This document shows, one piece after another, positions 40,599-63,918 of a stretch of 64,000 bases of DNA (position 1 is the stretch's first letter; each line of letters begins with the position of its first letter). The notes below the pieces were generated by a model. It searched no databases and was not told the DNA's origin. It saw nothing but the letters and a program-made list of their open reading frames with translations. Source of the DNA: Escherichia phage vB_EcoM-S1P5QW. Position numbers and translations under genes: made by a program. Location: the sequence record OL956808.1; one strand, given 5' to 3'.

Positions 40599-40629
40599 GT
40601 TTACACAGGGTTTTAGTAGTGATACTATT
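40599..40629 (+). promoter_or_regulatory. early promoter upstream of ipI
   Basis: -35 GTTTAC, about 17-nt spacer, -10 tgaTACTAT; short inverted repeat agggt/accct around -10. Confidence 0.55.
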
Positions 40630-40662
40630 ACCCTATCAAAACAAAACCAAATGGAAATCAAA

Positions 40663-40896
40663 ATGAAAACTTTCAAAGAGTTTATCGCTGAATCTTCTGA
40701 TGTAAAAGTTGAGTTTATTTACACCGGCAAGAAAGATAAAATGGGTGAAATGCCTCATGGAGTTCTTCGTGATGCATTAGATAATTTCGGTCAACTCGCC
40801 GCAGAAGATTACGGTGATAAAATTGTTGTTACTGGTCCTGCTGCAGTTATTGAAAAATGGGCAGCAGAAAATAAATCAATTTTTCGTAAAAAATAA
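40663..40896 (+). CDS. ipI: internal protein I-like, N-terminal capsid targeting sequence
   Basis: Track ORF starts at TTG inside the promoter; ATG at 40663 gives MKTFKEFIAE-SSDV..., matching the T4 IP capsid targeting sequence and gp21 cleavage context; adjacent to 57B as T4 ipI; start could be the ATG at 40651. Confidence 0.7.
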   Translation: MKTFKEFIAESSDVKVEFIYTGKKDKMGEMPHGVLRDALDNFGQLAAEDYGDKIVVTGPAAVIEKWAAENKSIFRKK

Positions 40897-40927
40897 GTTT
40901 ACTTTTAGATAGGGTAGTGATACTATT
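40897..40927 (+). promoter_or_regulatory. early promoter with stem-loop
   Basis: GTTTAC then inverted repeat atagggta/taccctat enclosing -10 gtgaTACTAT; near-duplicate of the element at 40611-40637. Confidence 0.55.
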
Positions 40928-40954
40928 ACCCTATCAACTACCGAGGAGAATAAA

Positions 40955-41140
40955 ATGAAACGTTGTGAATTAATTCGAAATGTTGCTATTGCAATTTCTG
41001 CTTCTGCTTTTAGTTTTTCAATGTTTGTTGGATTTATATGCGGATTATTGACTACAGCAGAAAATGTTTTTTCACTTGTAGCAGCATTTTTAATTGGTTT
41101 AATTGCTATCGTTATGGATAAAATTTCTAAAGGTGAATAG
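40955..41140 (+). CDS. small membrane protein (2 predicted TM helices)
   Basis: 61 aa hydrophobic ORF; gaggag RBS; downstream of early promoter 40897. Confidence 0.55.
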   Translation: MKRCELIRNVAIAISASAFSFSMFVGFICGLLTTAENVFSLVAAFLIGLIAIVMDKISKGE

Positions 41141-41141
41141 A

Positions 41142-41525
41142 ATGTATAAAGTGTACGCGGATTATCAGGCTAATCCATCTGAAAAGCCAGGTTGTCAAAT
41201 TGGATGGGCTCATGATACTTTGCTTGAAGCAGTAGATGCTGCTCAAAAATTAGGATATAAATATGTAGAGATTGTTCAACTACCATCAGGAAAAGTTATT
41301 ACTCTTGAAGAGTTCAATAATATTAAACCAAACTTTTTACTTTTTGCAGGTGATAATTATTATCCTCGTGGTGGATATGCTGATTTAATCGCGAAAGCCG
41401 CTACCGAAGATGAACTTCGTGATATTATTAAAGAAAATGAAAATAAACCGATGTATGGTTCTAATCGTTTTGACTGGTGGCAAATTGTAAATGCCCATAC
41501 TCATACTATTGTTGATGAAGGCTGA
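41142..41525 (+). CDS. hypothetical protein
   Basis: Track ORF starts at non-ATG 41103; ATG at 41142 with aggtg RBS gives 127 aa. Confidence 0.55.
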   Translation: MYKVYADYQANPSEKPGCQIGWAHDTLLEAVDAAQKLGYKYVEIVQLPSGKVITLEEFNNIKPNFLLFAGDNYYPRGGYADLIAKAATEDELRDIIKENENKPMYGSNRFDWWQIVNAHTHTIVDEG

Positions 41526-41527
41526 TA

Positions 41528-41815
41528 ATGATTCTTTATGCGAAAGTATCATCCATTGAAAATGGATATAAATATGATCAAGACGCGACTAAAGCCTTGA
41601 TTGATGATTATGGCATTTTAACATGTTTTGAAGTTGAAAAGGTTTACATTGACCGTTCATCTTCTCAGGTTAAATTAGTGAAGGAAGACCGTAAATTTAA
41701 TACAGTAAATTTTGATTTCTTTATTGAAACAGAAAAAGGTCCTCTTGAATATGATATTTTCAAGAATCCTTTGGGTCTTGAATGCATCGTAAATATGTAT
41801 TATCATAAATGGTAA
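41528..41815 (+). CDS. hypothetical protein
   Basis: 95 aa; start overlaps upstream stop (coupled). Confidence 0.5.
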   Translation: MILYAKVSSIENGYKYDQDATKALIDDYGILTCFEVEKVYIDRSSSQVKLVKEDRKFNTVNFDFFIETEKGPLEYDIFKNPLGLECIVNMYYHKW

Positions 41816-41887
41816 ATATGCTTTAAGAATTATTTGTTATTATTAACTCATACCGCACTGATTAATACCCTCTATCATCAAGGGTTC

Positions 41888-41911
41888 TTGCTTAAGAGCC
41901 TTTGTTAATAA
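41888..41911 (+). promoter_or_regulatory. candidate middle promoter for the tRNA cluster
   Basis: MotA-box-like tTGCTTaa followed by AT-rich -10-like taataat just upstream of tRNA-Gln. Confidence 0.35.
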
Positions 41912-41912
41912 T

Positions 41913-41985
41913 TGGGAATTAGCCAAGTTGGTAAGGCACTGGATTTTGATTCCAGGATGCAAAGGTTCGAGTCCTTTATTCCCAG
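41913..41985 (+). tRNA. tRNA-Gln (anticodon UUG); CCA not encoded
   Basis: Cloverleaf folded by hand: acceptor tgggaat/attccca, anticodon loop ttTTGat, T-loop ggttcgagtcc. Confidence 0.85.
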
Positions 41986-41986
41986 C

Positions 41987-42073
41987 GCGAGAATGGTCAA
42001 ATTGGTAAAGGCACAGCACTTAAAATGCTGCGGAATGATTTCCTTGTGGGTTCGAGTCCCACTTCTCGCACCA
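41987..42073 (+). tRNA. tRNA-Leu (anticodon UAA), type II
   Basis: Acceptor gcgagaa/ttctcgc, anticodon loop ctTAAaa, long variable arm, encoded CCA; abuts tRNA-Gln (dimeric precursor as in T4). Confidence 0.85.
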
Positions 42074-42078
42074 AATTT

Positions 42079-42152
<74 letters not shown>

Positions 42153-42198
42153 ATTTATGTCTCGTCGTGAGACGCTCAGTTCTTTATTAGGGACTGAT

Positions 42199-42807
42199 AT
42201 GCATTTTTATCTTTATAAAATAACAAATAAAATTAATAATAAAATTTATATTGGTGTGCATTCTACCGAAAATTTAGATGATGGATATATGGGTTCTGGT
42301 AAATTATTAAAAAGAGCCCAAGATAAATATGGTATAGAAAATTTTTCTAAAGAAATATTAGAGTATTTTGATGATAAAGAATCTATGCTTGAAGCCGAGA
42401 AAAATATTGTCACAGAAGAGTTTTTAAATAGACCAGATGTGTATAATTTAAAACTTGGAGGTGAAGGTGGATGGGATCATATAAATAATTATCCTATGAC
42501 AGATCAGCAACGCGAATTAATTTCATTGGGTGTTAAAAAGGCACATTCTAACGGAAAATTAAAAGGATGGTCTTCAAATGGATTAATGAAAAATGGCTTT
42601 GCTGGTAAAACTCATTCTCAAGAAGCTAAACGTAAAATAGCAAAAGCAAACGAAGCAAAAGTTTCTGCGAATGAAAGAAAAAGAAGAATAGAAATTTCTA
42701 AATTATATGATTTTTCTAAGCGGGGTGAATTATCTAAATATGCTAAGCATATTGGCGTAAGTCATACTCAAGCAAAAAGAATTCTAAATCAAATTAACAA
42801 TATATAA
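42199..42807 (+). CDS. segB: GIY-YIG homing endonuclease, SegB-like
   Basis: GIY-YIG signature FYLYKITNKINNKIYIGVH...YMGSG; track ORF (42157) begins just after tRNA-Gly, ATG at 42199 has an RBS; inside the tRNA cluster as T4 segB. Confidence 0.75.
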   Translation: MHFYLYKITNKINNKIYIGVHSTENLDDGYMGSGKLLKRAQDKYGIENFSKEILEYFDDKESMLEAEKNIVTEEFLNRPDVYNLKLGGEGGWDHINNYPMTDQQRELISLGVKKAHSNGKLKGWSSNGLMKNGFAGKTHSQEAKRKIAKANEAKVSANERKRRIEISKLYDFSKRGELSKYAKHIGVSHTQAKRILNQINNI

Positions 42808-42813
42808 ATATTT

Positions 42814-42903
42814 GGAGGCGTGGCAGAGTGGTTTAATGCACCGGTCTTGAAAACCGGCAGTCGCTCCGGCGACTCATAGGTTCAAATCCTATCGCCTCCG
42901 CCA
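42814..42903 (+). tRNA. tRNA-Ser (anticodon UGA), type II
   Basis: Acceptor ggaggcg/cgcctcc, anticodon loop ctTGAaa, long variable arm, encoded CCA. Confidence 0.85.
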
Positions 42904-42908
42904 GTTTT

Positions 42909-42984
42909 GCTGATTTAGCTCAGTAGGTAGAGCAACTCACTTGTAATGAGAAGGTCGGCGGTTCGATTCCGTCAATCAGCACCA
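42909..42984 (+). tRNA. tRNA-Thr (anticodon UGU)
   Basis: Acceptor gctgatt/aatcagc, anticodon loop ctTGTaa, T-loop ggttcgattcc, encoded CCA. Confidence 0.8.
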
Positions 42985-42985
42985 A

Positions 42986-43060
42986 GGCCCTGTAGCTGGA
43001 AGGTTCAAGCAAGCGACTCATAATCGCCAGATGGTGGTTCAATTCCACCCAGGGCCACCA
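42986..43060 (+). tRNA. tRNA with CAU anticodon (Ile2-type as in T4, or Met)
   Basis: Acceptor ggccctg/cagggcc, anticodon loop ctCATaa, encoded CCA. Confidence 0.75.
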
Positions 43061-43069
43061 AATTAATTT

Positions 43070-43156
43070 GGGGAGTTATCCCGTAGAGGTAGCGGTGTGG
43101 ACTGTAAATCCATTGTCATTGCGACTCGGGTGGTTCGACTCCATCACTCCCCACCA
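43070..43156 (+). tRNA. tRNA-Tyr (anticodon GUA), type II
   Basis: Acceptor ggggagt/actcccc, anticodon stem gtgga/tccat with loop ctGTAaa, long variable arm resembling E. coli tRNA-Tyr, encoded CCA. Confidence 0.7.
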
Positions 43157-43160
43157 ATTT

Positions 43161-43235
43161 GGATGTGTAGCTCAATGGCAGAGCGATCGCCTGTTAAGCG
43201 ATTGGTTATAGGTTCGAATCCTATCACTTCCGCCA
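43161..43235 (+). tRNA. tRNA-Asn (anticodon GUU)
   Basis: Anticodon stem atcgc/gcgat with loop ctGTTaa, T-loop ggttcgaatcc, encoded CCA; one U-U mismatch in acceptor stem. Confidence 0.7.
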
Positions 43236-43349
43236 AATTTGTGACAACTGTCACATTAATATCTACTTGACGCGATTATCGGGGTTGAACTGATCACTCT
43301 TCTCTTAATTTCGTGTGAAGACATCTTGATTGTTGGAGTAGGTATTAAT

Positions 43350-43425
43350 GTGGCCGTAGTTCAGTTGGTAGAACTCGAGATTGTGATTCTCGTAGTCATG
43401 GGTTCGACTCCCATCGGTCACCCCA
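43350..43425 (+). tRNA. tRNA-His (anticodon GUG)
   Basis: D-stem gttc/gaac, anticodon stem cgaga/tctcg with loop ttGTGat, T-loop ggttcgactcc, discriminator C and CCA; no encoded G-1. Confidence 0.7.
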
Positions 43426-43429
43426 ATTA

Positions 43430-43505
43430 CGGGGCATAGCTCAGAAGGAAGAGCAAGGACCTTCTAAGTCCTGGGTCGTAGGTTCGATCCCTACTGCCTC
43501 GACCA
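43430..43505 (+). tRNA. tRNA-Arg (anticodon UCU)
   Basis: Acceptor cggggca/tgcctcg, anticodon stem aggac/gtcct with loop ctTCTaa, encoded CCA. Confidence 0.8.
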
Positions 43506-43850
43506 AACAAGAAGCCGGGTCGCTACCGGTAAGTCGTCGGACTGATGTTCCCTGGGTAAGGACTGGCATTAACAAATCTTTACGATCGGTTAATGCCCCC
43601 TTACATCACAGCAGAAACGGCGCACCGAATTATCGATTCGAGGAAATATCTTTGCCGTAAGCCGAGTAGCGTTTTTGACGGAACGTTCGGATATGGTCGA
43701 GATATGGCCTTTTAAAATATTAAGTAGCGTCAACTGCTTAATAACCGGGTTCGAATCCCGGCGTTTCGTACAAACACTTGCCTTAGCAGGTGGAACCCCG
43801 ACAAGGTTGCCGCAAGGCTTAGCCCCGACCGAAAGGTTGGGGCTTTTTAG
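43506..43850 (+). ncRNA. stable small RNA region (T4 RNA C/D-like) ending at an intrinsic terminator
   Basis: 345 nt without a credible ORF right after tRNA-Arg; tRNA-like T-arm ccgggttcgaatcccgg at 43745-43763; ends with hairpin plus T-run 43822-43850; T4 has two stable RNAs here (recalled). Confidence 0.4.
43822..43850 (+). terminator. intrinsic terminator (copy 1)
   Basis: agccccgaccgaaaggttggggc + TTTTT; near-identical copy at 44377. Confidence 0.7.
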
Positions 43851-43894
43851 TATAAATAAGTATATTAAAACCACGAATTAAAACAGGAAATAAG

Positions 43895-44368
43895 ATGAAA
43901 TCATATGCTCAATTTTTAAATGAAGCGGTGTTAAATGAAGCATCTAGCACCGAAATTCAAGCCGTTGCAAAAGCTGCCATTGCCGCGGGTAAATATTCCT
44001 ATAAAGATGCTTCTGATGAGTCACGATTCCAATTTGCTCGCGATATGAAAGCGGAAGGATTTACAGGGAATGCAGTTAGTATGGCCTGGAAAAGTCTAGT
44101 TGCTACTGGAGCTGCTTTTGCAAAGGCTTCGGGTAAACCTGCTCCTAAAGCAGATCCTAAAGTCACACAAGAGAAAAATATTGTTAAAGGAATTATCTCC
44201 AAATATGAAGCTATCCTTAAAGAGCTTTTAGTAATCAAAACTGAAGGCCAAAAACTGGCTCGTGCTTATAGTTTCAAAGATAACCCACATGCTCACTCTC
44301 TTGAGTATGTTGAAGACATCCAAAAAATTATTAAAGACCGCATTTGGTCTGCTAAACAAATCAAATAA
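43895..44368 (+). CDS. candidate packaged internal protein with CTS-like N-terminus
   Basis: 157 aa; N-terminus MKSYAQFLNE-A resembles T4 CTS MKTYQEFIAE; Ala/Lys-rich; flanked by near-identical terminators. Confidence 0.55.
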   Translation: MKSYAQFLNEAVLNEASSTEIQAVAKAAIAAGKYSYKDASDESRFQFARDMKAEGFTGNAVSMAWKSLVATGAAFAKASGKPAPKADPKVTQEKNIVKGIISKYEAILKELLVIKTEGQKLARAYSFKDNPHAHSLEYVEDIQKIIKDRIWSAKQIK

Positions 44369-44376
44369 CATTCTTA

Positions 44377-44403
44377 GCCCCGACAGAAAGGTTGGGGCTT
44401 TTT
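44377..44403 (+). terminator. intrinsic terminator (copy 2)
   Basis: agccccgacagaaaggttggggc + TTTTT after the CTS-like gene. Confidence 0.7.
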
Positions 44404-44536
44404 GGCATCTAGGCTTTTCCGGGCCTCTCTAGGCATCATTTAGTTTATATCCTTTATAATATATTATCCTATCCTTTGATTTCCCCTCCCTGCCCTAGAA
44501 TTCCCTAAAACTTTTTAAAAATTTTTTCACAAAACT

Positions 44537-44568
44537 GTTTACATCCCTGTTCTTCCATGGTACTATAT
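44537..44568 (+). promoter_or_regulatory. early promoter
   Basis: GTTTAC, -10 tggTACTATat; shares tggtactata(c/t)aactatcaact with promoters at 59485 and 60924. Confidence 0.55.
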
Positions 44569-44609
44569 AACTATCAACTACTGATACAGAAAACAACTTG
44601 GAGAACGAA

Positions 44610-44873
44610 ATGGATAATTACGGCGAACTGTTCAACTTCTTTATGAAATGTGTTTCAGAAGATTTCGGTCGTACAGTGAATGATATTAAAGTTATCGGTC
44701 CTGATCATCCGATGTTTGAAACTTATGCGGTAATGGGCAATGAAGACGGTCAGTGGTATACTGTAAAGGTTGTGATTAACATGTTCACTGCTGAAAGTTA
44801 TGTTAAACTGTCTTCTAAAGTTTACCATGATAACGACGAAATCGCAGAAGAATATTTCAATAATATGAAATAA
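44610..44873 (+). CDS. hypothetical protein (e.8-like position)
   Basis: Track ORF starts at TTG 44598; ATG at 44610 with ggag RBS gives 87 aa; downstream of early promoter. Confidence 0.5.
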   Translation: MDNYGELFNFFMKCVSEDFGRTVNDIKVIGPDHPMFETYAVMGNEDGQWYTVKVVINMFTAESYVKLSSKVYHDNDEIAEEYFNNMK

Positions 44874-44883
44874 GTTTACATAG

Positions 44884-44913
44884 GCTCATGATTGAGATAT
44901 TATGAGCCTATAA
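44884..44913 (+). promoter_or_regulatory. early promoter with stem-loop
   Basis: GTTTAC; 10-bp inverted repeat ataggctcat/atgagcctat brackets the -10 gaTATTAT. Confidence 0.55.
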
Positions 44914-44929
44914 CTTTGAGGAGAACATA

Positions 44930-45328
44930 ATGAATATTAAAGATAAAGAAATGCGAGAGTTATATAATTCATTAACACCCGAACAACAAAAATCTGTTAA
45001 AGAATTAGAGAAAGCTCTTAGTTTAAGCTTGACAAAAACTGATTGGGTCGCCGTGTATGAAGAAAAAATGAGATCGGAAAATGAAGCTGTCGAGAGAAAT
45101 GAATGGATTGTAGACACCAAGATTGGTGATGATGGATGTTCTGTTGAGGTGTCAGCTGTAGTTAAAGGTACTCATGGCGAAGAATCATGGGGTTGGCATA
45201 ATGAGGCAAACAAATATATTGTTCTCTCAACGTCAAAAACTTATGGTCAAAAGGTTCCTGTATCCAAAGCTATTATTAAGCAAGCTCAATGGGAAGCCAA
45301 TGAAATCTGCCTCGCAAAAATGAAATAA
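44930..45328 (+). CDS. hypothetical protein
   Basis: 132 aa; gaggag RBS; own early promoter. Confidence 0.55.
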   Translation: MNIKDKEMRELYNSLTPEQQKSVKELEKALSLSLTKTDWVAVYEEKMRSENEAVERNEWIVDTKIGDDGCSVEVSAVVKGTHGEESWGWHNEANKYIVLSTSKTYGQKVPVSKAIIKQAQWEANEICLAKMK

Positions 45329-45331
45329 CAT

Positions 45332-45361
45332 GTTTACAAACTCTCGGGAGTAGAGTATAAT
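45332..45361 (+). promoter_or_regulatory. early promoter with stem-loop
   Basis: GTTTAC, -10 gagTATAAT; inverted repeat gggagta/tactccc around -10. Confidence 0.6.
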
Positions 45362-45405
45362 ACTCCCACGGATTATAAAACCCTTAATTAACTAAAGGAA
45401 ATGCT

Positions 45406-45999
45406 ATGAACATGCTGAAGAAAATTGTTGAGTTTATTCGCACTAAACTTGGTTCTGCTATGGCTAAAAATCTATCTGTTGAAGAGCAGTATACTGCCGC
45501 AGCAGCAAAACTACTTGATAAAATTAAAGATCTAAAAACTGCTTCTGTTAAATCTATTAATGAAGAAAAGCGTATTCGTGAACTTATTGTCGAAAAGAAT
45601 CGACAGGCCGAATCAAAAGAGCGTGAAATTCGCAAGCTTCTTTCGGAAGGTCAAGATGTAACAATGCATGCTAAACTTGGTTTACTATATCGTCGAACAG
45701 CTGAGCAGTTGACTACTAAAGCTGATGGTTATGCTGAAATGCGAATTGAAATCGCCAAGAAAGTAGTTGAGTTAGATGATGCTCGCCAAGAACTTGCAGT
45801 TAAATTGGAATATATCCGTGAAACTCGCGCCGCGAATGCCCTCGGAATTAGTACTGCTGATGATGTAGTTGAAATTGCAGCACTGACTAAGGTTGATATT
45901 GAAGATACTCTTGCTCGAGTTGAAACCTTTAATGGCAATATTTCTGGGGTTGAAACTACCTCTGCCGATGTTCAGGAATACATTAATTCTCTGAAATAA
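45406..45999 (+). CDS. hypothetical helical/coiled-coil protein
   Basis: 197 aa; aaggaa RBS; own early promoter; terminator after stop. Confidence 0.55.
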
Positions 46000-46022
46000 T
46001 GATAAGGGGCTTCGGCCCCTAT
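45998..46022 (+). terminator. hairpin after ORF 45406-45999
   Basis: Hairpin aggggc-ttcg-gcccct; weak T-run. Confidence 0.45.
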
Positions 46023-46040
46023 TACTTGGAGTAAGTAGGA

Positions 46041-46646
46041 ATGAAAATGCAAAGTGATTTCAATTCAATGTTTGAAGAGTTCCAAAGACAGGTTGATGTT
46101 CCAGACCAATTATTAAATGCTCTTAAACGTATGGCAGAAGGACGTAATTATTATTGGGGTTCTTCATATGAAACTGATGAAAGTCTTTCTGGATTTTATA
46201 AAGGTAAAAAGTCTTTAATACGTCCTGGAATACTTATTAACAGTATTGAATCAATTCATTCATTAACATGTGATTTTGATGTTGAATTTACTGATTTCAT
46301 TTCTCCTGAATGGACAGTATGTTATTTAAACGACGATTATGATTATCTTGGCGTTTACAGTTTAAGTGACGCATGGTTTAAACGTAATTTACAAAAGTCA
46401 AATTTGTTCTATATTGATACTACGGTAAAATTTCAGGGAAAGAAATATTTCTTTACTCTTATAGTTGACTCTGAAACAAAATATGAAAATAAGCGTATTC
46501 TTAATAAAAAGAATATCTTAACTATCGTTGATGATCTTTTTGATAAATTCGTGGAAAATCCTAATTTTGAAAGCGATTTATTATTAGAAAAATTTGTTAA
46601 GGAATGTAGAGAATATGTCAAAGCCATCACTATACCTTCCAAGTAA
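46041..46646 (+). CDS. hypothetical protein, first member of C-terminal FVKECR paralog array
   Basis: 201 aa; aggaa RBS; C-terminus LLEKFVKECREYVK. Confidence 0.55.
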   Translation: MKMQSDFNSMFEEFQRQVDVPDQLLNALKRMAEGRNYYWGSSYETDESLSGFYKGKKSLIRPGILINSIESIHSLTCDFDVEFTDFISPEWTVCYLNDDYDYLGVYSLSDAWFKRNLQKSNLFYIDTTVKFQGKKYFFTLIVDSETKYENKRILNKKNILTIVDDLFDKFVENPNFESDLLLEKFVKECREYVKAITIPSK

Positions 46647-48285: not shown

Positions 48286-48816
<531 letters not shown>

Positions 48817-48820
48817 AGTT

Positions 48821-48850
48821 ATTTACTTTCTCCTAGAATTGTGATAGTAT
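48821..48850 (+). promoter_or_regulatory. candidate early promoter upstream of the IPIII-like gene
   Basis: -35-like ATTTAC and -10 gtgaTAGTAT. Confidence 0.4.
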
Positions 48851-48910
48851 ATTCACAGTTACTTGAAGAGATAAATTATTAATTAAAATATTTACATTTA
48901 AAGGATACAC

Positions 48911-49384
48911 ATGAAAACATATCAAGAATTTATTACTGAAGCAGCTATTAATTCTCAAATTATTGCTGAATCTTTTACTGATCTTTTGAAATTTAAAAAA
49001 GGACAGAAAATCACTGCTGTACTGGATGATGGTACAGAAGTTGAGATGGATGTACAGGGATATAATTATGCAGTAGATGGAAAACTGTATAATAAATCTC
49101 ATGCTAAATTTGATTCATTTGACGACTTTGTTAATACAGTTGAAGATGAAAAAACTCGTCGATCCATTGCAACAGGTGATGCTAAGGTTCTTATGGCACA
49201 TGGTCATGAACGTATTCGCGCTAAACAGAATAAAATGGGTGAAGATAATTTTGCATTAGTTGGTTATCAATCTGGTAAACAAACTTATGGCTATCAACGT
49301 ACTGCTACCATGTATAACAAAAATGGTAAAATTGCCTTTGTGAATAGTAAAGGTTCTATTCAGTACGTTAAATCGTTCAAATAA
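48911..49384 (+). CDS. internal protein (IPIII-like) with capsid targeting sequence
   Basis: 157 aa; N-terminus MKTYQEFITE-AA matches T4 CTS; adjacent to e as T4 ipIII; aagga RBS. Confidence 0.6.
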   Translation: MKTYQEFITEAAINSQIIAESFTDLLKFKKGQKITAVLDDGTEVEMDVQGYNYAVDGKLYNKSHAKFDSFDDFVNTVEDEKTRRSIATGDAKVLMAHGHERIRAKQNKMGEDNFALVGYQSGKQTYGYQRTATMYNKNGKIAFVNSKGSIQYVKSFK

Positions 49385-49537
49385 GCAAATAAGAAATATG
49401 GGAACAACCTGGACCTCATGATTCTGTGAGGGATTCCCGCCAACCTGTAATAAGGTCGAGCCCAAGTGCGGTAATGGGTAAATACAGAAATGGACAATTC
49501 ATGCGCCACGGAATGGCCCAAACCTAGAGAGAATAAA

Positions 49538-50077
49538 ATGAGAACATTTTTAACTGGTCCTTATCTATCCCTGATGAATGCTTTTACACACCATTCTGAT
49601 GCTAGAGTAGAAGAAATTTGTAAAAACGAATATATCCCGCCATTTGAAGAATTACTTAAACAGTATTGCACACTTCGACTAGATGGTGGACGTCAATCCG
49701 GTAAATCAATTGCTGTGACTAACTTTGCTGCTAATTGGTTGTATGATGGCGGAACAGTTATCGTTCTTTCTAATACTTCAGCTTACGCTAAAATTTCTGC
49801 AAATAACATTAAAAAGGAATTTTCGCGTTATTCTAATGATGATATACGTTTTCGTTTATTTACTGATTCTGTGCGCAGTTTTATTGGTAATAAAGGAAGC
49901 AAGTTCAGAGGTTTATCGCTTTCGCGAATTTTGTATATAATTGATGAGCCTGTCAAATCTCCTGATATGGATAAGATTTATAGTGTCCATATTGAGACTG
50001 TACACTACTGCTGTAATAGTAAATGTTGTATTGGTGGTATTACTCGTCCACAGTTTTTCGTAATCGGAATGCAATGA
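49538..50077 (+). CDS. small P-loop NTPase-like protein with Cys-rich C-terminus
   Basis: Track ORF (49490) over-extended; ATG at 49538 with RBS gives 179 aa; Walker A GGRQSGKS, Walker B-like ILYIIDEP, C-terminal HYCCNSKCC. Confidence 0.55.
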   Translation: MRTFLTGPYLSLMNAFTHHSDARVEEICKNEYIPPFEELLKQYCTLRLDGGRQSGKSIAVTNFAANWLYDGGTVIVLSNTSAYAKISANNIKKEFSRYSNDDIRFRLFTDSVRSFIGNKGSKFRGLSLSRILYIIDEPVKSPDMDKIYSVHIETVHYCCNSKCCIGGITRPQFFVIGMQ

Positions 50078-51530: not shown

Positions 51531-51539
51531 CTGTTTACT

Positions 51540-51569
51540 TTTCCTCTTGACTGTGGTATAATTTTTCTA
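51540..51569 (+). promoter_or_regulatory. early promoter upstream of regB
   Basis: GTTTAC, 18-nt spacer, -10 tggTATAAT; imperfect inverted repeat cctcttgactg/cagttaagagg. Confidence 0.6.
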
Positions 51570-51589
51570 TCAGTTAAGAGGAGAATAAC

Positions 51590-54156: not shown

Positions 54157-54165
54157 GAAGGTGAT

Positions 54166-55002: not shown

Positions 55003-55014
55003 TAGGAGGCCTTT

Positions 55015-55691: not shown

Positions 55692-55696
55692 CATTA

Positions 55697-55722
55697 GTCT
55701 CCTTCGGGAGACTTTTTTCATT
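55697..55722 (+). terminator. intrinsic terminator after ORF 55305-55691
   Basis: Hairpin agtctcc-ttcg-ggagact followed by TTTTTT. Confidence 0.7.
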
Positions 55723-55728
55723 TTACCG

Positions 55729-55760
55729 GTTTACTTTCCGTTTGAGCTGTGATACTATAC
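55729..55760 (+). promoter_or_regulatory. early promoter
   Basis: GTTTAC, -10 gtgaTACTATacaactatc. Confidence 0.5.
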
Positions 55761-55786
55761 AACTATCGGATAAAGAGGAGAACATC

Positions 55787-56178: not shown

Positions 56179-56180
56179 GT

Positions 56181-56538: not shown

Positions 56539-56540
56539 TG

Positions 56541-56571
56541 GTTTACAAGTTGGCAAGGTTATGGTATAGTA
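56541..56571 (+). promoter_or_regulatory. early promoter
   Basis: GTTTAC, -10 tggTATAGT. Confidence 0.5.
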
Positions 56572-56702
56572 ATCTTGTCAACTTCCAAGGAGAAGAGAAT
56601 GAAAGTTTTGTTTGTTGTGTATGTGATGATTCAATATAATTACCCAATGTTTACTTATAATTTGGTAAACAACATTATTGATATGATTCAGAGGAGTATG
56701 TA

Positions 56703-56888
56703 ATGACAAGTGAGCAGGCTTTTAAATTAAGAGAATTAATTGAGACGTATAGTAAAGCTGTTCATACATCAACAATTATTGATGAATCAGCTTTCTCCGG
56801 ACATGCTAACAAGATTAAATACAAAACTCTTATGGAAGAAGCTAAAGTAAATCTTGATTCTTATATTGAAACTTTAATTGGTAAATAA
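56703..56888 (+). CDS. hypothetical small protein
   Basis: 61 aa; gaggag RBS; preceded by early promoter and a 34-codon mini-ORF. Confidence 0.45.
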   Translation: MTSEQAFKLRELIETYSKAVHTSTIIDESAFSGHANKIKYKTLMEEAKVNLDSYIETLIGK

Positions 56889-56889
56889 T

Positions 56890-57432: not shown

Positions 57433-57438
57433 GGAAAT

Positions 57439-57960: not shown

Positions 57961-57962
57961 TT

Positions 57963-58424
57963 ATGATTATTAATGAAAACTCTTGGCATTATAAATTATT
58001 CAAATTGTTTAACGACGAATGGCAACGACCTAAGACACTATGCGCATATTTTTGGTCTATTGCCATTCCTACATTTTTCGTTTCTATTTTTGGATGTGCT
58101 ATACTCGTAGGGCTAACAATTATTTGTGCAGAAAGCCTACAACGTTGGCTTATTTTCGGTAGTTTATGGACTCTTCTTCCATCGGCATTTATACTTGCAC
58201 TTTTGGTTGTTTTACTTATTATCGGTTCATTTGTTATTCCTGCACATTTGCGTGAAAAATATAAAGATTATAAATGGAAAAAGGATTATGCTTTACGCGT
58301 AGAAAATATTGATAGGGCGTATAAAGGTTTACCTCCTATTCAACCCAAGAAATCGATTATCGTTGAATTTTTAAAAGCTCGTAAAGCTAAAGTATGTCCT
58401 GTTATTGAATATAAGGCTGAATGA
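57963..58424 (+). CDS. polytopic membrane protein
   Basis: 153 aa with 2-3 hydrophobic helices; translationally coupled to the downstream nucleotidyltransferase. Confidence 0.5.
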   Translation: MIINENSWHYKLFKLFNDEWQRPKTLCAYFWSIAIPTFFVSIFGCAILVGLTIICAESLQRWLIFGSLWTLLPSAFILALLVVLLIIGSFVIPAHLREKYKDYKWKKDYALRVENIDRAYKGLPPIQPKKSIIVEFLKARKAKVCPVIEYKAE

Positions 58425-59434
58425 TGAAAACAGTAATGAAAAGCTATTTTGGTAGTCATCTTTATGGAACTTCTACCCCAGAATCTGATGTAGATTTTAA
58501 AGAAATCTTTGTTCCTCCTGCTCGCGATATTCTTATCGGAAATGTCAAAGAGCACATGAGTAAAAACACTAACAACACATCATCTAAAAACACTAAAGAT
58601 GATATTGACCATGAACTATACAGTCTTAAATATTTCTTTAAATTAGCAGCAGATGGTGAAACTGTAGCATTGGATATGCTTCACACTCCACCTGAATTAG
58701 TGGTTAAATCTGATTTGCCTGATGTGTGGAAGTTTATTCAAGACAACCGTTCTCGTTTTTATACGACTAACATGAAATCATATTTAGGATATGTTCGCAA
58801 GCAAGCTTCTAAATACGGTGTCAAGGGTTCTCGTTTGGCTGCATTACGTGATGTATTGAAAGTAGTTAATCAAATCCCTGAGCAATGGGTTGATTACCAA
58901 GAAGACGGTTCCATTAAGCATCGTCGAACTAAAGTTGAAGATATTAAGCATCGTCTTCCAGAGAACGAATTCTGTGAATGGGTATTCCATAATCATGAGA
59001 AAACAGGTCCACAAACGTTCTACACTGTGTTGGGTCGTAAATATCAAACAACGCTTTCTCTCATTGAGCTTAAGCAGTCTTTGAATAAACTTGATGCTGA
59101 ATACGGCGAACGTGCTCGTAAGGCTGAAGCGAATGAGGGCATTGACTGGAAAGCTCTGAGTCATGCTTGCCGTGGTGGACTCCAACTATTGGAAATTTAC
59201 AAAACTGGTGACTTAGTCTATCCACTTCAAGATGCTCCATTTATTCTTGACGTGAAGTTGGGTAAGCATCCATTTAAAACGGTTCAAGAGTTTTTAGAAG
59301 ATGTGGTCGATCAAGTAGAAGCAGCATCTACTGAAGCTTCTAAGAACGGTATGCAGCAAAAAGTAGACATGAGTTTCTGGGATGACTTCCTTGAGAAGGT
59401 GTATCTCGAAAACCATCGAAGTTATTATAAATGA
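58421..59434 (+). CDS. Pol-beta superfamily nucleotidyltransferase-like protein
   Basis: 337 aa; N-terminal signature FGSHLYGTSTPESDVDF (G[GS]x9-13DxD) plus downstream acidic ALDMLH; ATGA overlap with upstream gene; terminator after stop. Confidence 0.6.
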   Translation: MMKTVMKSYFGSHLYGTSTPESDVDFKEIFVPPARDILIGNVKEHMSKNTNNTSSKNTKDDIDHELYSLKYFFKLAADGETVALDMLHTPPELVVKSDLPDVWKFIQDNRSRFYTTNMKSYLGYVRKQASKYGVKGSRLAALRDVLKVVNQIPEQWVDYQEDGSIKHRRTKVEDIKHRLPENEFCEWVFHNHEKTGPQTFYTVLGRKYQTTLSLIELKQSLNKLDAEYGERARKAEANEGIDWKALSHACRGGLQLLEIYKTGDLVYPLQDAPFILDVKLGKHPFKTVQEFLEDVVDQVEAASTEASKNGMQQKVDMSFWDDFLEKVYLENHRSYYK

Positions 59435-59461
59435 TAGGGAGCCTTCGGGCTCCCTTTTTTA
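59433..59461 (+). terminator. intrinsic terminator after the nucleotidyltransferase gene
   Basis: Hairpin gggagcc-ttcg-ggctccc followed by TTTTTT. Confidence 0.7.
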
Positions 59462-59484
59462 TTTCAAAAATTTTTCACAAAGTT

Positions 59485-59517
59485 GTTTACAAGCATAAAG
59501 CTTTATGGTACTATACA
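59485..59517 (+). promoter_or_regulatory. early promoter with stem-loop
   Basis: GTTTAC; inverted repeat cataaag/ctttatg in spacer; -10 tggTACTATacaactatcaact. Confidence 0.55.
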
Positions 59518-59548
59518 ACTATCAACTGATACGGATTTGGAGAATAAA

Positions 59549-60517
59549 ATGAAAACTGTAACTATCAATAAGGGTATCTACTTCGGTAAAGAAATCTCTG
59601 GAACTTTTGAGCTCTTAGGCGAATGGTTCCCAGATAATGCTCCGGTGGATGCACAAGGAGATGGTAAAGTTTTTGTTGAAATTGACGGTAAGCGTCGCGG
59701 TGTTTGGGTTTACAAATCAGACATTTCATATGATGGTGTAAAAGTTGAAGAAGTTAAAGAATCATATGAAGATATGAAAACCCGCATTAATAAAAGATTT
59801 AATGTTATGGGAATGATGACGAATGGTATTATTAACGGAAACATTCGTTCATTAATTATCTCTGGTGCGGCGGGTATTGGTAAAACGTATTCTTTAGATA
59901 AAGCTTTAAATAAAGCAAATGATATTGGATACATTGAATATAAAAGCATTAACGGTAAAATCTCCGGTATCGGTCTTTATGAACAACTTTGGAATAATCG
60001 TGAAGAGAATTCTGTCCTTTTGATTGATGATGTGGATGTTTTCTCTGATATGGACATTCTTAATCTTCTAAAAGCTGCTCTGGACACTGGAGAGACCCGT
60101 AAAGTCTGCTGGAGCACTGCATCTTCTTACTTAGAAGAAAAAGGCATTGAGCGTGAGTTTGAATTTAAAGGAACGATTGTTTTTATCACAAACGTTGACA
60201 TTGACCGCGAATTAGACCGTGGTACTAAACTTGCTCCACATTTACAAGCATTAGTGTCCCGCTCAGTTTATTTGGATTTGGGTGTTCACACTAATGAAGA
60301 AATTATGGTCAGGGTTGAAGATGTTATTCTTTCAACTGACATGATGCAAAAGCGCGGTCTTTCTGATGAAGAAACTTATAAAGCATTATCATGGATGAAA
60401 GTCAATGTTAATCGTTTACGCAATGTTTCACTGCGTACTGCTCTTTATCTTGCTGACTTTATTATGACCGACAAAAACGGTTGGGAAGAAATTGCTGAGG
60501 TTACTCTTCTGAAATAA
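59549..60517 (+). CDS. P-loop ATPase (AAA-like)
   Basis: Track ORF starts at TTG inside promoter; ATG at 59549 with ggaga RBS gives 322 aa; Walker A GAAGIGKT, Walker B VLLIDDVD. Confidence 0.6.
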   Translation: MKTVTINKGIYFGKEISGTFELLGEWFPDNAPVDAQGDGKVFVEIDGKRRGVWVYKSDISYDGVKVEEVKESYEDMKTRINKRFNVMGMMTNGIINGNIRSLIISGAAGIGKTYSLDKALNKANDIGYIEYKSINGKISGIGLYEQLWNNREENSVLLIDDVDVFSDMDILNLLKAALDTGETRKVCWSTASSYLEEKGIEREFEFKGTIVFITNVDIDRELDRGTKLAPHLQALVSRSVYLDLGVHTNEEIMVRVEDVILSTDMMQKRGLSDEETYKALSWMKVNVNRLRNVSLRTALYLADFIMTDKNGWEEIAEVTLLK

Positions 60518-60618
60518 TTCATAAGAGGACTTCTATGACAAAAAGGCAGTTCAGAAATAGATTATATGGACTGCCATTAAAAAGATGACTAGAATTAAAC
60601 TGGTGAATGGAGGTAGTG

Positions 60619-60921
60619 ATGTTATACTCAAAGGCTCGTGAAATTTATGAAACTAAAATTAAAGACGCGGTTCATCAGTTCGCAACGACAATGCGTTGGA
60701 CAAATGATTGGGAGTATTCAAAAAATCATAAGAAGCCCTTGGTGACAAGAAAGGCTCATATGTTAGTGTTAATAGACCGTGAGCAGATTAAAGCCCGAGA
60801 AGCCCTCCAGAATCATAAAAAGGCTGCTTTTGAATGGTTTATGGATAACACTGCTCCTGAGACTAAGAAAGCAGTGAGCGCTTGGTTCAGTGGAAAAAAT
60901 TGTGAAAGAAGTTTCTTTTAG
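60619..60921 (+). CDS. hypothetical protein
   Basis: ATG at 60619 with ggaggtag RBS (100 aa); upstream ATG at 60607 is an alternative. Confidence 0.45.
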   Translation: MLYSKAREIYETKIKDAVHQFATTMRWTNDWEYSKNHKKPLVTRKAHMLVLIDREQIKAREALQNHKKAAFEWFMDNTAPETKKAVSAWFSGKNCERSFF

Positions 60922-60923
60922 TT

Positions 60924-60955
60924 GTTTACAAGACCGTTCCTCTGTGGTACTATAC
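60924..60955 (+). promoter_or_regulatory. early promoter with stem-loop
   Basis: GTTTAC; inverted repeat gttcctc/gaggaac brackets -10 tggTACTATacaactatcaact. Confidence 0.55.
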
Positions 60956-60981
60956 AACTATCAACTACGGAGGAACACAAA

Positions 60982-61509
60982 ATGAACGCTAAAGATATTT
61001 TCAACCTGGTAAATTACAACGATGGTAAATTTAAATCTGAAGCACAAAGCAAGTTCTTTAATGACATCTCAATCGGAGGTGAAATCACGGTTGATGGAGG
61101 ACAAATTTACAAATCCCGTTGGAATTGGATCGTTATTATCGATGAGATTGGTATTGTAGAAATTTACAAGAATACGAATAAAAATCGTACATTACACTGG
61201 TCTCGTGATACTAATGAACAGTACAAAAAGGATAAAGCATCTAAATTATCTCGTGTAACTCAAGAAGATATTGAGTTCATCAAGAAAGATATTTTGATGT
61301 ATGATAACTTAATTGCTGAAGAGCAAGCTGTTATTGATAAATTTGACGAGATTAAAGCTTCTCGTGAAATTCCTGATTTTATGAAAGAATCAGTAAATGA
61401 ACGATACACTCTCATTTCAGAGCGTATTGAAACTTACAAAAAGCAAAGAGCTGAACGCCAGAATACTCTTCGGAAGTTTGAAGAACGGTTAAAGACGGTA
61501 CTCGCATAA
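60982..61509 (+). CDS. hypothetical protein
   Basis: Track ORF starts at TTG inside promoter; ATG at 60982 with ggagga RBS gives 175 aa. Confidence 0.5.
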   Translation: MNAKDIFNLVNYNDGKFKSEAQSKFFNDISIGGEITVDGGQIYKSRWNWIVIIDEIGIVEIYKNTNKNRTLHWSRDTNEQYKKDKASKLSRVTQEDIEFIKKDILMYDNLIAEEQAVIDKFDEIKASREIPDFMKESVNERYTLISERIETYKKQRAERQNTLRKFEERLKTVLA

Positions 61510-61564
61510 CCGCTTTATACCAAGGATGGTATAATGGTTCTAAGCCCTTTTAATTGAGATTATT

Positions 61565-61966
61565 ATGAAACAGTTGATAATTAAAAGATTGAATTTATTG
61601 ATATGTTGTTTATGTATAGTAATTGCATATGGTTATTACGCAATTAATGATTATATGCATTATAAAGATTATGATGTTACTGTAGTTAATACCTTTACAG
61701 GAACTCAAGGAAAGGGGTCTAGTTTATCGTTTATTGCCGTATATGAACTAAATGACGGTTATAGATTTAGCGAATATATTTCACCGGAGATGTATTCTTC
61801 AATAGAAAAAGGTGATAATATTACTGTAAGTTTACGTCCTTTCGACGTAAAACAGACATTGTTTGATAATATTGTTTGGTTCTTTGGAATGGTATTAGTT
61901 CAATCTGTGTGTGGTGCTTATATAGTCTTTTCCATCATATTCTGCGTATTTAGTAAAATTGAGTGA
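61565..61966 (+). CDS. membrane protein (N- and C-terminal TM helices)
   Basis: 133 aa with hydrophobic helices at both ends. Confidence 0.5.
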   Translation: MKQLIIKRLNLLICCLCIVIAYGYYAINDYMHYKDYDVTVVNTFTGTQGKGSSLSFIAVYELNDGYRFSEYISPEMYSSIEKGDNITVSLRPFDVKQTLFDNIVWFFGMVLVQSVCGAYIVFSIIFCVFSKIE

Positions 61967-61973
61967 GGAAAAT

Positions 61974-62861
61974 ATGTCAGTAGTAATTAATAATGTCAAT
62001 GCAGTAATTAAATCTTTAGTTAATAAAAAATTGAATGAATGGACTGTACTTCGTCGTGGAGAGCCAGATAAATTTTTTCATAGATTTAACCCAACTTTGG
62101 ATTTGAATGTTATTGACAGAGATGTTCATGCTGAAATTTTAGATAAATTTAAAGTTGATATTGGGTTTGGATTAGATAAACATTTACAACGAACAAACGG
62201 GTCTGGAATGGGTTTATCTAATCGCATCATGAAAGCCCTTAATAAAATTGGAGCGTTGTCTCGTATTAACGCGAGTGAAATTCTTCGCAATTATAATAAA
62301 GGATATGACCTTTATGGTAGACTAATGCCGAAATTGTCATTCGATCAAATGATTGCGGATTTGTGGGAAAATCAACGACGATTATTAGCATTAGGCGCTC
62401 GATTAGCTAAAGGTCTAGATAAACAAATGATTTTTAAGACCAATAATACAGAAGACCTTAAATGCTTTAAATTTAGTATTCGCGGCGATGATTATTATAT
62501 CAGAGCTCGCTCTACAGATTATGTTAATATGGGGCATCATCTCTGTTTAGCTTTTGAAGTTTTAAAAGAAGCTGGAACGTTAGAATATTCATCTGGTGCT
62601 AAATGCCCGATTGGTTCAAATTGCATTTTAATTTATCGCCCGGATGAATCCAGTTTAACTAAATTTCCTACAAAACCTGTACCAGTTCGTAGTAACGAAA
62701 AACATTCTGAACAAATTGATTATTTTAATAAGCAAATTGAAGAGCTAAATATTTCTATTCAACAATATGACGATGAAATTTTCAGACTATCTGGACTGAG
62801 TAGTAAAGCTAAATCTGAACGTGAAAAATTAATTAAAATTGTTGATTTACTTAAATCTTAA
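61974..62861 (+). CDS. hypothetical protein
   Basis: Track ORF starts at TTG 61959; ATG at 61974 with gaggaa RBS gives 295 aa; coiled-coil-like C-terminus. Confidence 0.5.
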   Translation: MSVVINNVNAVIKSLVNKKLNEWTVLRRGEPDKFFHRFNPTLDLNVIDRDVHAEILDKFKVDIGFGLDKHLQRTNGSGMGLSNRIMKALNKIGALSRINASEILRNYNKGYDLYGRLMPKLSFDQMIADLWENQRRLLALGARLAKGLDKQMIFKTNNTEDLKCFKFSIRGDDYYIRARSTDYVNMGHHLCLAFEVLKEAGTLEYSSGAKCPIGSNCILIYRPDESSLTKFPTKPVPVRSNEKHSEQIDYFNKQIEELNISIQQYDDEIFRLSGLSSKAKSEREKLIKIVDLLKS

Positions 62862-62869
62862 GGAACACC

Positions 62870-63889
62870 ATGAAAACTCGTTCTCAAATTGAAGATATGG
62901 TTCGTAATGCCAGCTATACTCGTGATGTTATGACATTTTTGTGCCAAAATAATTTAGACCCTGATAAAGTTAATCGTGATATTCACTTTAAATATATGAA
63001 TAGCAGTGAATGGTTACGTCATTTTAGTAAAGCGGGGTATATTACACAAATGACTGCTCGTGAGCAGCTCACCGATTTCTGTAAAACTATTGATTATAAA
63101 AATCCTCTATTTGTTCAAGGTGTTGGTCAGAGTAAGGTCGATTTATCATCTGGATTTTTCAATCCAAATCATTATCGTATTGAATGGAGATTTATTGCTC
63201 TATTCCGTAAACAATTAAAGCAAATTTTGTCGACGGCTAGTCGATTAAAAGGTTCTGATATTAACTTAAAGAACCTGAAATTTGATGGTTATACTCTTCA
63301 GATGGAAGTAAGACCATTAAAAGAAAATAATAGAACTGCACGAATTAGCTTTAAACCTAATACAAAAAATTCTCTTTCAATTTGTGAATGTCTTAAATCA
63401 CAGCTGACAGAAGCATTTAAGTATATGGATGTTGTTGCTGCTGTTCAATCTAAGATTTCGCAGCATTTCGAACGATTTAAATTAGATACGACAACATATG
63501 AACTTGATATGATCGTTTCATTTAAATACGATTTTTTGAGAAAGGACGAAGTCCCGCAAGAGAAAAAGCAGGAAGTGCAAGATAACTTAAATTTATCTAA
63601 TTACTCATCAAACGATCCTAAATTTTGGATGTATAGTTCAGGTAATAAAGATGCATGGAAATTCAATAAAGTGAATTTTCTTCCTATTGAAAATCCGAGT
63701 CTTAAACCTGTTGAAAAATGGCACGCGGATGCGATTGAGAAGTCCCTTAAGGCAGTAGATGATGAACTCGTTAAAGCGACCAATGAAGTGTTAGAAGCTG
63801 AAAAGATGCTAGAAAAAGCACAAGAAAAAGTCAAAAATCTCACGAAGCAACGTTCTAAACTGAACAATGCACTAAATGCACTGAACTAG
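62870..63889 (+). CDS. hypothetical protein with coiled-coil C-terminus
   Basis: 339 aa; aggaa RBS. Confidence 0.5.
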   Translation: MKTRSQIEDMVRNASYTRDVMTFLCQNNLDPDKVNRDIHFKYMNSSEWLRHFSKAGYITQMTAREQLTDFCKTIDYKNPLFVQGVGQSKVDLSSGFFNPNHYRIEWRFIALFRKQLKQILSTASRLKGSDINLKNLKFDGYTLQMEVRPLKENNRTARISFKPNTKNSLSICECLKSQLTEAFKYMDVVAAVQSKISQHFERFKLDTTTYELDMIVSFKYDFLRKDEVPQEKKQEVQDNLNLSNYSSNDPKFWMYSSGNKDAWKFNKVNFLPIENPSLKPVEKWHADAIEKSLKAVDDELVKATNEVLEAEKMLEKAQEKVKNLTKQRSKLNNALNALN

Positions 63890-63918
63890 TTTACTTTGCC
63901 ACAAGGATGTGGTATAAT
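63889..63918 (+). promoter_or_regulatory. early promoter
   Basis: GTTTAC, palindrome ccacaaggatgtgg in spacer, -10 tggTATAAT. Confidence 0.6.

Follow-up and report, generated by a model that had tools for sequence, protein, structure and literature searches.

Inverted repeats lie in or around the -10 hexamer of most early promoters in a stretch of 64,000 nucleotides of Escherichia phage vB_EcoM-S1P5QW (sequence record OL956808.1; this whole stretch is called the window below). The question raised by the locus, positions 40,599 to 63,918, is what these repeats do, and whether they act as RNA or as DNA. In relatives the repeats are kept as structures while their sequences change. The reading favoured here, which we hold to be probable though well short of secure, is that sigma-70 early promoters head short early units, and that the hairpin embedded in a promoter insulates its unit from transcription arriving from upstream; we infer both the active form, RNA and not DNA, and the role of the hairpin.

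Promoters and their embedded hairpins

The window is DNA of a Tequatrovirus, a T4-like coliphage, whose early-gene accessory block is at 40.6-63.9 kb. Queries of 12 kb and 23.6 kb taken from this block matched hundreds of Tequatrovirus genomes at ~95-97% identity, the closest being Ge15, KIT03 and RB18 (~96% identity) and AndreasVesalius. The window is the reverse complement of the T4 map, 40.6-63.9 kb corresponding to about 74 to 51 kb of T4 (57B to nrdC.4), and a sign change of the GC skew at ~38 kb marks the border between minus-strand late genes and the early block.

The motif GTTTAC-N14-20-TAnnAT has 12 matches versus 1.9 expected, a number reached in none of 100 shuffles. Ten matches, all on the + strand, have an exact 18-nt spacer (40599, 40897, 44537, 44874, 45332, 51533, 55729, 59485, 60924 and 63889) and are followed by a Shine-Dalgarno (SD) sequence and a start codon 50-75 nt downstream; the other two, at 59708 (+) and 52686 (-), have aberrant spacing, lie inside genes and were rejected as chance matches. 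Two further elements share the architecture, at 48821 (ATTTAC..TAGTAT) and 56541 (GTTTAC-N18-TATAGT), giving a total of 12 elements of the GTTTAC-N18-TAnnnT type, all on the + strand, with a start codon 50-90 nt downstream. A TG precedes the -10 in eight of the 11 elements of one scan, a list that does not contain 48821.

Early promoters of T4 are characterized by GTTTAC at -35, a TGn-extended -10 and an A/T-rich UP region (Hinton 2010, PMC2988021). The same motif is found in T4 at 73939, 73572, 70696, 69967, 66498, 62797, 58780, 57990, 55384, 53943 and 50973, i.e. at the gene junctions of the window (ipI, trna.4, e.8, e.6, ipIII/Ip4, regB, mobD.5, mobD.2, nrdC.10, nrdC.8 and nrdC.4). The T4 GenBank and RefSeq records contain no promoter features, and orthology is therefore shown by motif and position; a literature check yielded no usable T4 start-site or 3'-end map. 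In the record of Yersinia phage fPS-90 these elements are labelled 'predicted early promoter'. By T4 architecture, T4 gene junctions and the fPS-90 annotation, the 12 elements are sigma-70-dependent early promoters of the T4 type, their activity being predicted.

Folding was evaluated for 70 nt, from the -35 to about +32, each against 300 dinucleotide shuffles. The mean z is -2.2 over 11 elements, with z <= -2.6 in six and -1.6 in a seventh; nothing was detected against shuffles at 44537, 55729 and 59485 (z +0.4 to +0.9), and the short palindromes within the spacers at 59485 and 63889 do not exceed chance. As a control that keeps composition and the conserved promoter motifs, each spacer was paired with every leader: pairing with the own leader averages -12.5 kcal/mol versus -8.0 for cross pairs (permutation p = 0.0002), and at 40897, 44874, 51533 and 60924 the own partner is the best one both for the spacer and for the leader. 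Taken together, eight of the 12 promoters, 56541 included, carry a supported embedded hairpin. An Rfam scan of 38-64 kb found 10 tRNAs and no family matching the promoter hairpins. The predicted promoters, their hairpins and the neighbouring terminators are as follows (z, folding against shuffles).

40599..40650, +, early promoter 1 and leader, ipI-like internal-protein gene (GTTTAC..TACTAT); z -2.8
40607-40634, +, hairpin of promoter 1, AGGGT/ACCCT with inner TAGTA/TACTA; brackets the -10
40897..40954, +, early promoter 2 (trna.4), a near-repeat of promoter 1, 298 bp apart; z -2.6; own partner ranks first; repeat family D1
40909-40916 / 40927-40934, +, hairpin of promoter 2, ATAGGGTA / TACCCTAT; brackets the -10
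44378..44401, +, canonical terminator 135 nt upstream of promoter 3; 92% copy of the terminator at 43818-43853 (repeat family D10)
44537..44609, +, early promoter 3 (e.8); z +0.9; no notable embedded hairpin, weak spacer-SD pairing
44874..44929, +, early promoter 4, open reading frame (ORF) of 132 residues in the e.7 slot, -10 TATTAT; z -5.3
44880-44889 / 44902-44911, +, hairpin of promoter 4, ATAGGCTCAT / ATGAGCCTAT
45332..45405, +, early promoter 5 (e.6); z -1.6; covariation
45346-45352 / 45361-45367, +, hairpin of promoter 5, GGGAGTA / TACTCCC; wholly upstream of the predicted start site
48821..48910, +, early promoter 6 (Ip4; ATTTAC..TAGTAT); z -2.6
48837-48844 / 48853-48860, +, hairpin of promoter 6, AATTGTGA / TCACAGTT; one G.U pair
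51533..51589, +, early promoter 7 (regB); z -4.8
51543-51553 / 51571-51581, +, hairpin of promoter 7, 5' arm CCTCTTGACTG in the spacer, 3' arm CAGTTAAGAGG being the regB SD region
55696..55786, +, terminator 55696-55713 (TTCG loop and T-run), then early promoter 8 (55729, mobD.5); z +0.4; no embedded hairpin
56541..56598, +, early promoter 9 (mobD.2; GTTTAC-N18-TATAGT), outside the motif of the sequence-only reading (see below); 9-11 bp bracket
56547-56557 / 56574-56584, +, hairpin of promoter 9, AAGTTGGCAAG / CTTGTCAACTT; one G.U pair
59436..59548, +, terminator 59436-59455, then early promoter 10 (59485, nrdC.10); z +0.8
within the spacer of promoter 10, +, zero-loop palindrome CATAAAG/CTTTATG only; not significant
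60924..60981, +, early promoter 11 (nrdC.8); z -5.0
60936-60945 / 60967-60976, +, hairpin of promoter 11, 5' arm GTTCCTCTGT in the spacer, 3' arm ACGGAGGAAC being the SD sequence
63889..63946, +, early promoter 12 (nrdC.4); z -1.3
63899-63903 / 63908-63912, +, in-spacer 5-bp hairpin of promoter 12, CCACA / TGTGG; not significant

An earlier, sequence-only reading of this DNA had proposed at least eleven early promoters, each with GTTTAC at -35 and TAtAAT or TACTAT at -10, and most with an inverted repeat bracketing or preceding the -10. The motif search agrees with that number and with the early-promoter assignment. The -35 is as described in 11 elements, 48821 having ATTTAC, and the -10 is as described except for TATTAT, TAGTAT and TATAGT in three elements; 'most' is borne out by both RNA folding and own-versus-cross pairing. 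One of the two repeats quoted as examples, in promoter 5, is about where it had been placed; the other, in promoter 4, had been put at 44891-44920, about 10 nt off.

Two further sequence features of the promoters were observed. A CTATCA(AC..) motif lies 4 nt past the -10 (~+1 to +8) in six promoters (40623-40638, 40921-40936, 44561-44576, 51557-51572, 59509-59524 and 60948-60963; 6 matches vs 0.29 expected) and is also present in Mosigvirus and Dhakavirus promoters, as ..CCTATCAA..; it could be an initial transcribed sequence, a discriminator, or a signal of the 5'-untranslated region. Furthermore, a UP-like block, TTTCACAAA(G/A)(T/C)TGTTTACA, is common to three promoters (40577-40605, 44515-44543 and 59463-59491; 83-86% identity).

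Geometry and covariation

Every supported hairpin takes its 5' arm from the non-conserved spacer, within positions -30 to -14. As this arm precedes the start site, transcripts of the promoter itself do not contain it, and the helix can form only in RNA entering from upstream. Two geometries are found in the window, and again in nine phages surveyed for 92 distinct promoters; 41% of these promoters are under the 5th percentile set by cross pairs. In the start-site-proximal geometry (type B: ipI-like gene, trna.4, e.7-slot ORF, e.6, Ip4 and mobD.2) the 3' arm begins 2-3 nt inside the -10 hexamer (22/22 cases) and stops at about +1/+2, the loop consisting of approximately the extended -10 plus the -10. 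In the SD-reaching geometry (type A: regB at 51533, nrdC.8 at 60924, and T4 denV) the 3' arm is the SD region, 17-27 nt further on; e.8 is counted as a weak type A. The predicted SD accessibility is 0.03 in read-through RNA versus 0.56 in own-start RNA for regB, and 0.10 versus 0.54 for nrdC.8. The layout of a translational gate, with the 5' arm upstream of the start and the 3' arm on the SD or AUG, is present at regB and nrdC.8 and at none of the six type B promoters; for regB, pairing in the relatives is moreover kept by compensatory change.

For the comparison of orthologous promoters, upstream regions were collected by anchoring on the downstream proteins in T4, five other Tequatroviruses, one Mosigvirus and one Dhakavirus, and 34 e.6 and 39 regB loci of IMG/VR were added. 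The e.6 promoter has at least seven different helices at one place: GGGAGTA/TACTCCC, GAGAGCA/TGCTCTC, GAGGACA/TGTCCTC, GGGAACA/TGTTCCC, GTGTAGGAG/CTCCTACAC, GATGGAAGC/GCTTCCATC and ATTAGA/TCTAAT, according to lineage. Column counting was limited to lineages that share one register, as other lineages move the helix by 1-3 nt; in these, 77 of 77 cells are paired and both sides have changed in four of seven pairs, a level reached by 0 of 500 shuffles, and registers slid against each other are only 35-57% paired. Own pairing at e.6 is -11.7 versus -6.1 kcal/mol for cross-lineage pairing (p < 5e-5).

For regB, the MAFFT alignment of the leaders lost the SD register, and own-versus-cross duplex energies were used in place of column pair counts. 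Among 38 distinct upstream sequences, 33 have a spacer anti-SD (CTCC..) that pairs with the SD (-16 to -23 kcal/mol), and the flanking bases covary per lineage (TTGACTG/CAGTTAA, CTAG/CTAG, GTAAG/CTTAC, TTTAT/ATAAA, ATTTG/CAAAT, TTTTAG/CTAAAA, CTTG/CAAG and GTAG/CTAC, among others), which amounts to at least 11 lineage-specific helices. Own pairing is -17.6 kcal/mol versus -10.6 across lineages (p < 5e-5). As the arms vary while the pairing persists at both e.6 and regB, the repeats are conserved as structures and not as sequences, with selection for pairing across genera; conservation at orthologous promoters, on which the sequence-only reading had made its case depend, is thus observed, by way of compensatory changes.

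Some orthologues differ in the promoter itself. The regB lineages that lack a helix have weaker promoter matches, GTGTAC..TATGAT in L072 and L076. The most distant e.6 orthologues (IMG/VR L045-L051 and L054) have TGCTT..TATAAA, ~60 nt upstream, instead of an early promoter; this resembles a MotA-dependent middle promoter, and a switch of promoter class is possible. In Kha5h (L004) and RB14 (L007), a 5-nt deletion leaves the e.6 promoter with a 13-nt spacer, the arms GGAGTA/TACTC being kept; judged by its spacing, this promoter is probably inactive.

Proposed insulation from upstream transcription and its alternatives

In the mechanism proposed, a spacer that is complementary to the sequence just downstream, as in eight of the 12 promoters, would form its helix only in RNA read through from an upstream promoter, and the hairpin would be an RNA-level insulator of the unit against upstream transcription. 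In type A (regB, nrdC.8 and, weakly, e.8), where the 3' arm is the SD, read-through RNA would be translationally silent, its GGAG would probably be hidden from RegB, and the gene would be expressed from its own early promoter only. In type B, where the helix ends at ~+1 right after the upstream stop codon, the hairpin may be an attenuator or an end-protecting structure for the upstream (processed) message, in place of the canonical terminator seen before three of the four hairpin-less promoters. A wider reading, offered tentatively and judged less likely than insulation itself, is that in many T4-like early promoters the variable spacer is itself a regulatory RNA element, encoding the anti-leader or anti-SD strand and so 'addressing' a gene to its own promoter; it would include masking of the SD in read-through RNA of regB, nrdC.8 and T4 denV, and its concealment from RegB.

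The distribution of terminators is consistent with insulation. Intrinsic-terminator criteria pick out 43821, 44378, 55696 and 59436, and none of the embedded hairpins. Canonical + strand terminators, at 44378, 55696 and 59436, precede three of the four promoters without an embedded hairpin; the eight hairpin promoters follow the upstream stop codon by ~0-15 nt and have no terminator (3/4 vs 0/8 in the window, Fisher p ~0.02). In the nine-phage survey a terminator precedes 17 of 54 hairpin-less and two of 38 hairpin promoters; orthologous sequences are not independent, so that the survey and terminator statistics are inflated, which is a first point against the reading.

Further points weigh against it. 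Four of the 12 promoters are without a significant hairpin. No U-run (T-run) follows any embedded hairpin, and the loops measure 8-27 nt; without a U-run, efficient intrinsic termination is not expected. For type B, the predicted SD accessibility is the same in read-through and own transcripts, and the type B function is therefore the least secure step of the mechanism. Among distinct stems there are 22 G.U pairs versus eight A.C mismatches, which weakly favours a sense-strand RNA structure over a cruciform, but this excess shrinks to ~13 versus 7, not significant, once related stems are collapsed. Two regB lineages of IMG/VR (L072/76/77 and L080/81) have neither a helix nor an upstream terminator, and the prediction that helix-less regB orthologues follow a terminator failed in L072, L076, L077, L080 and L081; the device is therefore common, not obligatory. 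Lastly, synteny breakpoints, mapped between the window and six Tequatroviruses, are found at ~6 of 12 promoters versus ~17 of 50 other junctions, a rate per junction that is not clearly higher.

Stem-loops within promoters of T4-type phages have been described as PeSL (promoter-early stem-loops), most commonly in the spacer that separates the two hexamers or across the -10 (Arbiol et al. 2010, PMC2839356), and the embedded hairpins may be nothing more than the true terminators or attenuators of composite terminator-promoters, as the PeSL papers propose. We consider this unlikely. It draws on Comeau et al. (2014, PMC4122927) and on the RB49/phi1 pair, for which terminator-like activity of one RB49 stem-loop in a lacZ assay, reduced expression and mini-circles were reported (PMC2839356), and it agrees with hairpins that start ~10-20 nt from the upstream stop codon and are distributed in a manner complementary to canonical terminators. 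The absence of a U-tract from every embedded hairpin is contrary to it, and in type A the loops of 17-27 nt and the 3' arms that are SD sequences point to translation rather than termination; also, downstream genes of T4 are classically reached by read-through, middle RNA being extended early transcripts (PMC2988021).

An action of the repeats in DNA, as a cruciform or single-strand hairpin with the -10 in its loop to aid opening, or in recombination (PeSL mini-circles), appears more doubtful still. The tolerance of G.T over A.C in the stems would not be expected of a two-strand cruciform, the transcription bubble does not reach the 5' arm, type A arms are 17-27 nt apart and end on the SD, and many breakpoints are at cassette edges and not within the repeat; what speaks for DNA is the very regular geometry of type B, with a loop of extended -10 plus -10 in 22 of 22 cases, together with breakpoints inside promoters and one crossover placed in the loop of a stem-loop (Arbiol 2010, PMC2839356).

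Two readings are very improbable and were rejected. Repeats without function, by chance or by descent within a repeated promoter family, would suit the chance-level 4-5 bp palindromes of 59485 and 63889 and the paralogous copies at 40599 and 40897. Covariation refutes this reading for the eight strong hairpins: e.6 has compensatory double changes with no broken pair, many different regB and e.6 helices occur at the same place, and own pairing exceeds cross pairing. Operators at which a dimeric DNA-binding protein, of the phage or of the host, would shut off early promoters, a shut-off not fully explained (PMC3014915), would typically be palindromes over the -10, and a shared protein needs a shared sequence, whereas the arms are entirely different among promoters and orthologues with pairing kept, and no common half-site was observed.

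Cassette exchange and known systems

With insulation as the favoured role of the hairpins, the promoters may in addition serve cassette exchange. No dispersed repeats of the region are larger than the promoter cassettes (64-78 nt, 64-71% identity, six and three copies; families D1, with 64 nt and six copies, D2, with 78 nt, and D4), and the repeated unit (UP element, -35, spacer, -10, CTATCAA and SD) would provide homology for it. The region contains, in order, 57B, the internal-protein genes, trna.4-.2, the tRNA cluster with a segB-like gene, e.8-e.2, nudE, e, Ip4, vs.8-vs.3, regB, vs, tk, rI, mobD.x and nrdC.11-nrdC.4. That promoter-embedded stem-loops had been described in T4-type phages as shuffling sites, as stated in the sequence-only reading, is correct (PMC2839356, PMC4122927). 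Its view that they divide the region into small gene cassettes applies to the single-gene intervals 40599-40897, 44537-44874 and 44874-45332, the others being multi-gene units of 0.8-4.2 kb.

Mapping of synteny breakpoints onto these elements, the check proposed with that reading, gives partial support. Six of the 12 promoters have breakpoints within them or at their borders, and ~13 of 42 distinct breakpoints fall in the ~4-5% of the sequence that the promoters occupy; about two-thirds are elsewhere, at homing-endonuclease genes, terminators and promoterless gene junctions. Those at promoters are in the internal-protein cassette (at 40684 and at 40914), on either side of the e.7 slot (44873-44934 and 45320-45394), which is filled by one or other of at least four ORFs with no relation to each other or is deleted, at Ip4 (48805-48884), and, in AndreasVesalius and fPS-90, an insertion of an ORF plus promoter between the nrdC.10 promoter and its SD (59525-59537). 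Those without promoters are in the tRNA/segB block, the tk.x genes, the mobD region and at a segE-like insertion. A recombination role of the promoter cassettes is plausible, only partly supported, and in agreement with the literature.

Several side observations concern the same region. A segB-like homing-endonuclease ORF (42157-42807) lies among the 10 tRNA genes (cluster 41913-43502); tRNA content and endonuclease position are different in every relative compared, and breakpoints cluster at the ends of the endonuclease ORF. Two 92%-identical terminator copies (AGCCCCGAC..GGTTGGGGCTTTTT), at 43818-43853 and 44373-44408, flank an ORF of 157 residues (43895-44368), which constitutes a terminator-bounded cassette, and several breakpoints (43857, 44373-44403) are at these copies. 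In fPS-90 (L006, 6262-6364), L022 and L024 the e.7-slot ORF is deleted and the 44874-type promoter and hairpin are fused to an e.6 promoter remnant without -35, a 'half PeSL', with only microhomology at the junction. The window lacks denV (48322-50077), with the gene order e - Ip4 - vs.8 as in RB14. The promoter, leader and SD of T4 denV (GTTTACATCTCCTGTAGGTATGATACTATAGACCTATCAACTACAGGAG; T4 coordinate 65413) are almost identical to the regB cassette of JS98, and one promoter module therefore serves different genes in different phages and moves between them.

Promoters with embedded hairpins are already known in kind, from T4 early promoters and PeSL cassettes, and the finding is mainly a correct annotation of the transcription units in the accessory region of this phage. 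Added here are quantitative covariation evidence across genera, the two geometries, and the position of three of the four hairpin-less promoters behind terminators. Neither the covariation, nor the two-class geometry, nor SD masking at early promoters (regB, nrdC.8, denV) was found in the accessible parts of PMC2839356, PMC4122927 and two T4 reviews of 2010, and priority is uncertain.

The window shares with T4 early promoters GTTTAC, a spacer of 17-18 nt ending in TGn, TAnnnT, an A/T-rich UP region and the same junctions, and differs from T4 in no basic respect, only in its internal-protein gene, in its e.7-slot ORF, and in having neither denV nor its promoter. As in PeSL (consensus TTTACW-N17-TAYWAT, extended to the T4/PST pair by Comeau et al. 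2014, PMC4122927), an A/T-rich intergenic region contains a sigma-70-type early promoter and a variable stem-loop, followed by SD and ATG; the homology is dispersed over ~100 nt, and the early regions concerned are hyperplastic. PeSL lie beside indels and replacements, and half of the promoters here coincide with breakpoints. In the T4/PST PeSL the stems are just upstream of the promoter (figure legend of 2014), whereas eight promoters of the window have the stem inside, as in RB49/phi1; terminator stems of the window are immediately upstream at 55729 and 59485, and 135 nt upstream at 44537. The morons of lambdoid phages similarly are single accessory genes with their own promoter and a downstream structure, but lack conserved repeated cassettes at their borders and usually have true terminators.

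The closest comparison for type A is the gate of T4 e, soc, 49 and I-TevI, where a late promoter lies within a hairpin and the gating logic is established (PMC3014915). Likewise, the 5' arm is upstream of the proximal start and the 3' arm is on the SD, so that proximal transcripts alone are translatable. The window has a built-in case of the promoter-in-hairpin design in its gene e leader (48286-48322), where an ATACCT../..AGGTAT hairpin over the SD encloses two TATAAATA late promoters. In the e-type gate the internal promoter is late and the silenced RNA early or middle; at regB and nrdC.8, which are not in the list of gated genes of PMC3014915, the internal promoter is early, and the RNA to be silenced would be that read through from early or middle promoters further upstream. 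An SD gate formed from the promoter spacers of regB and nrdC.8 may perhaps be a mechanism not described before, though we would not put this strongly. If true, SD masking would be a simple rule that keeps timed genes like regB on one promoter despite pervasive read-through, and would account in functional terms for promoter-plus-gene cassettes being portable; it would explain the existence and covariation of PeSL, and would extend the late-gene mechanism of e, soc, 49 and I-TevI to early promoters.

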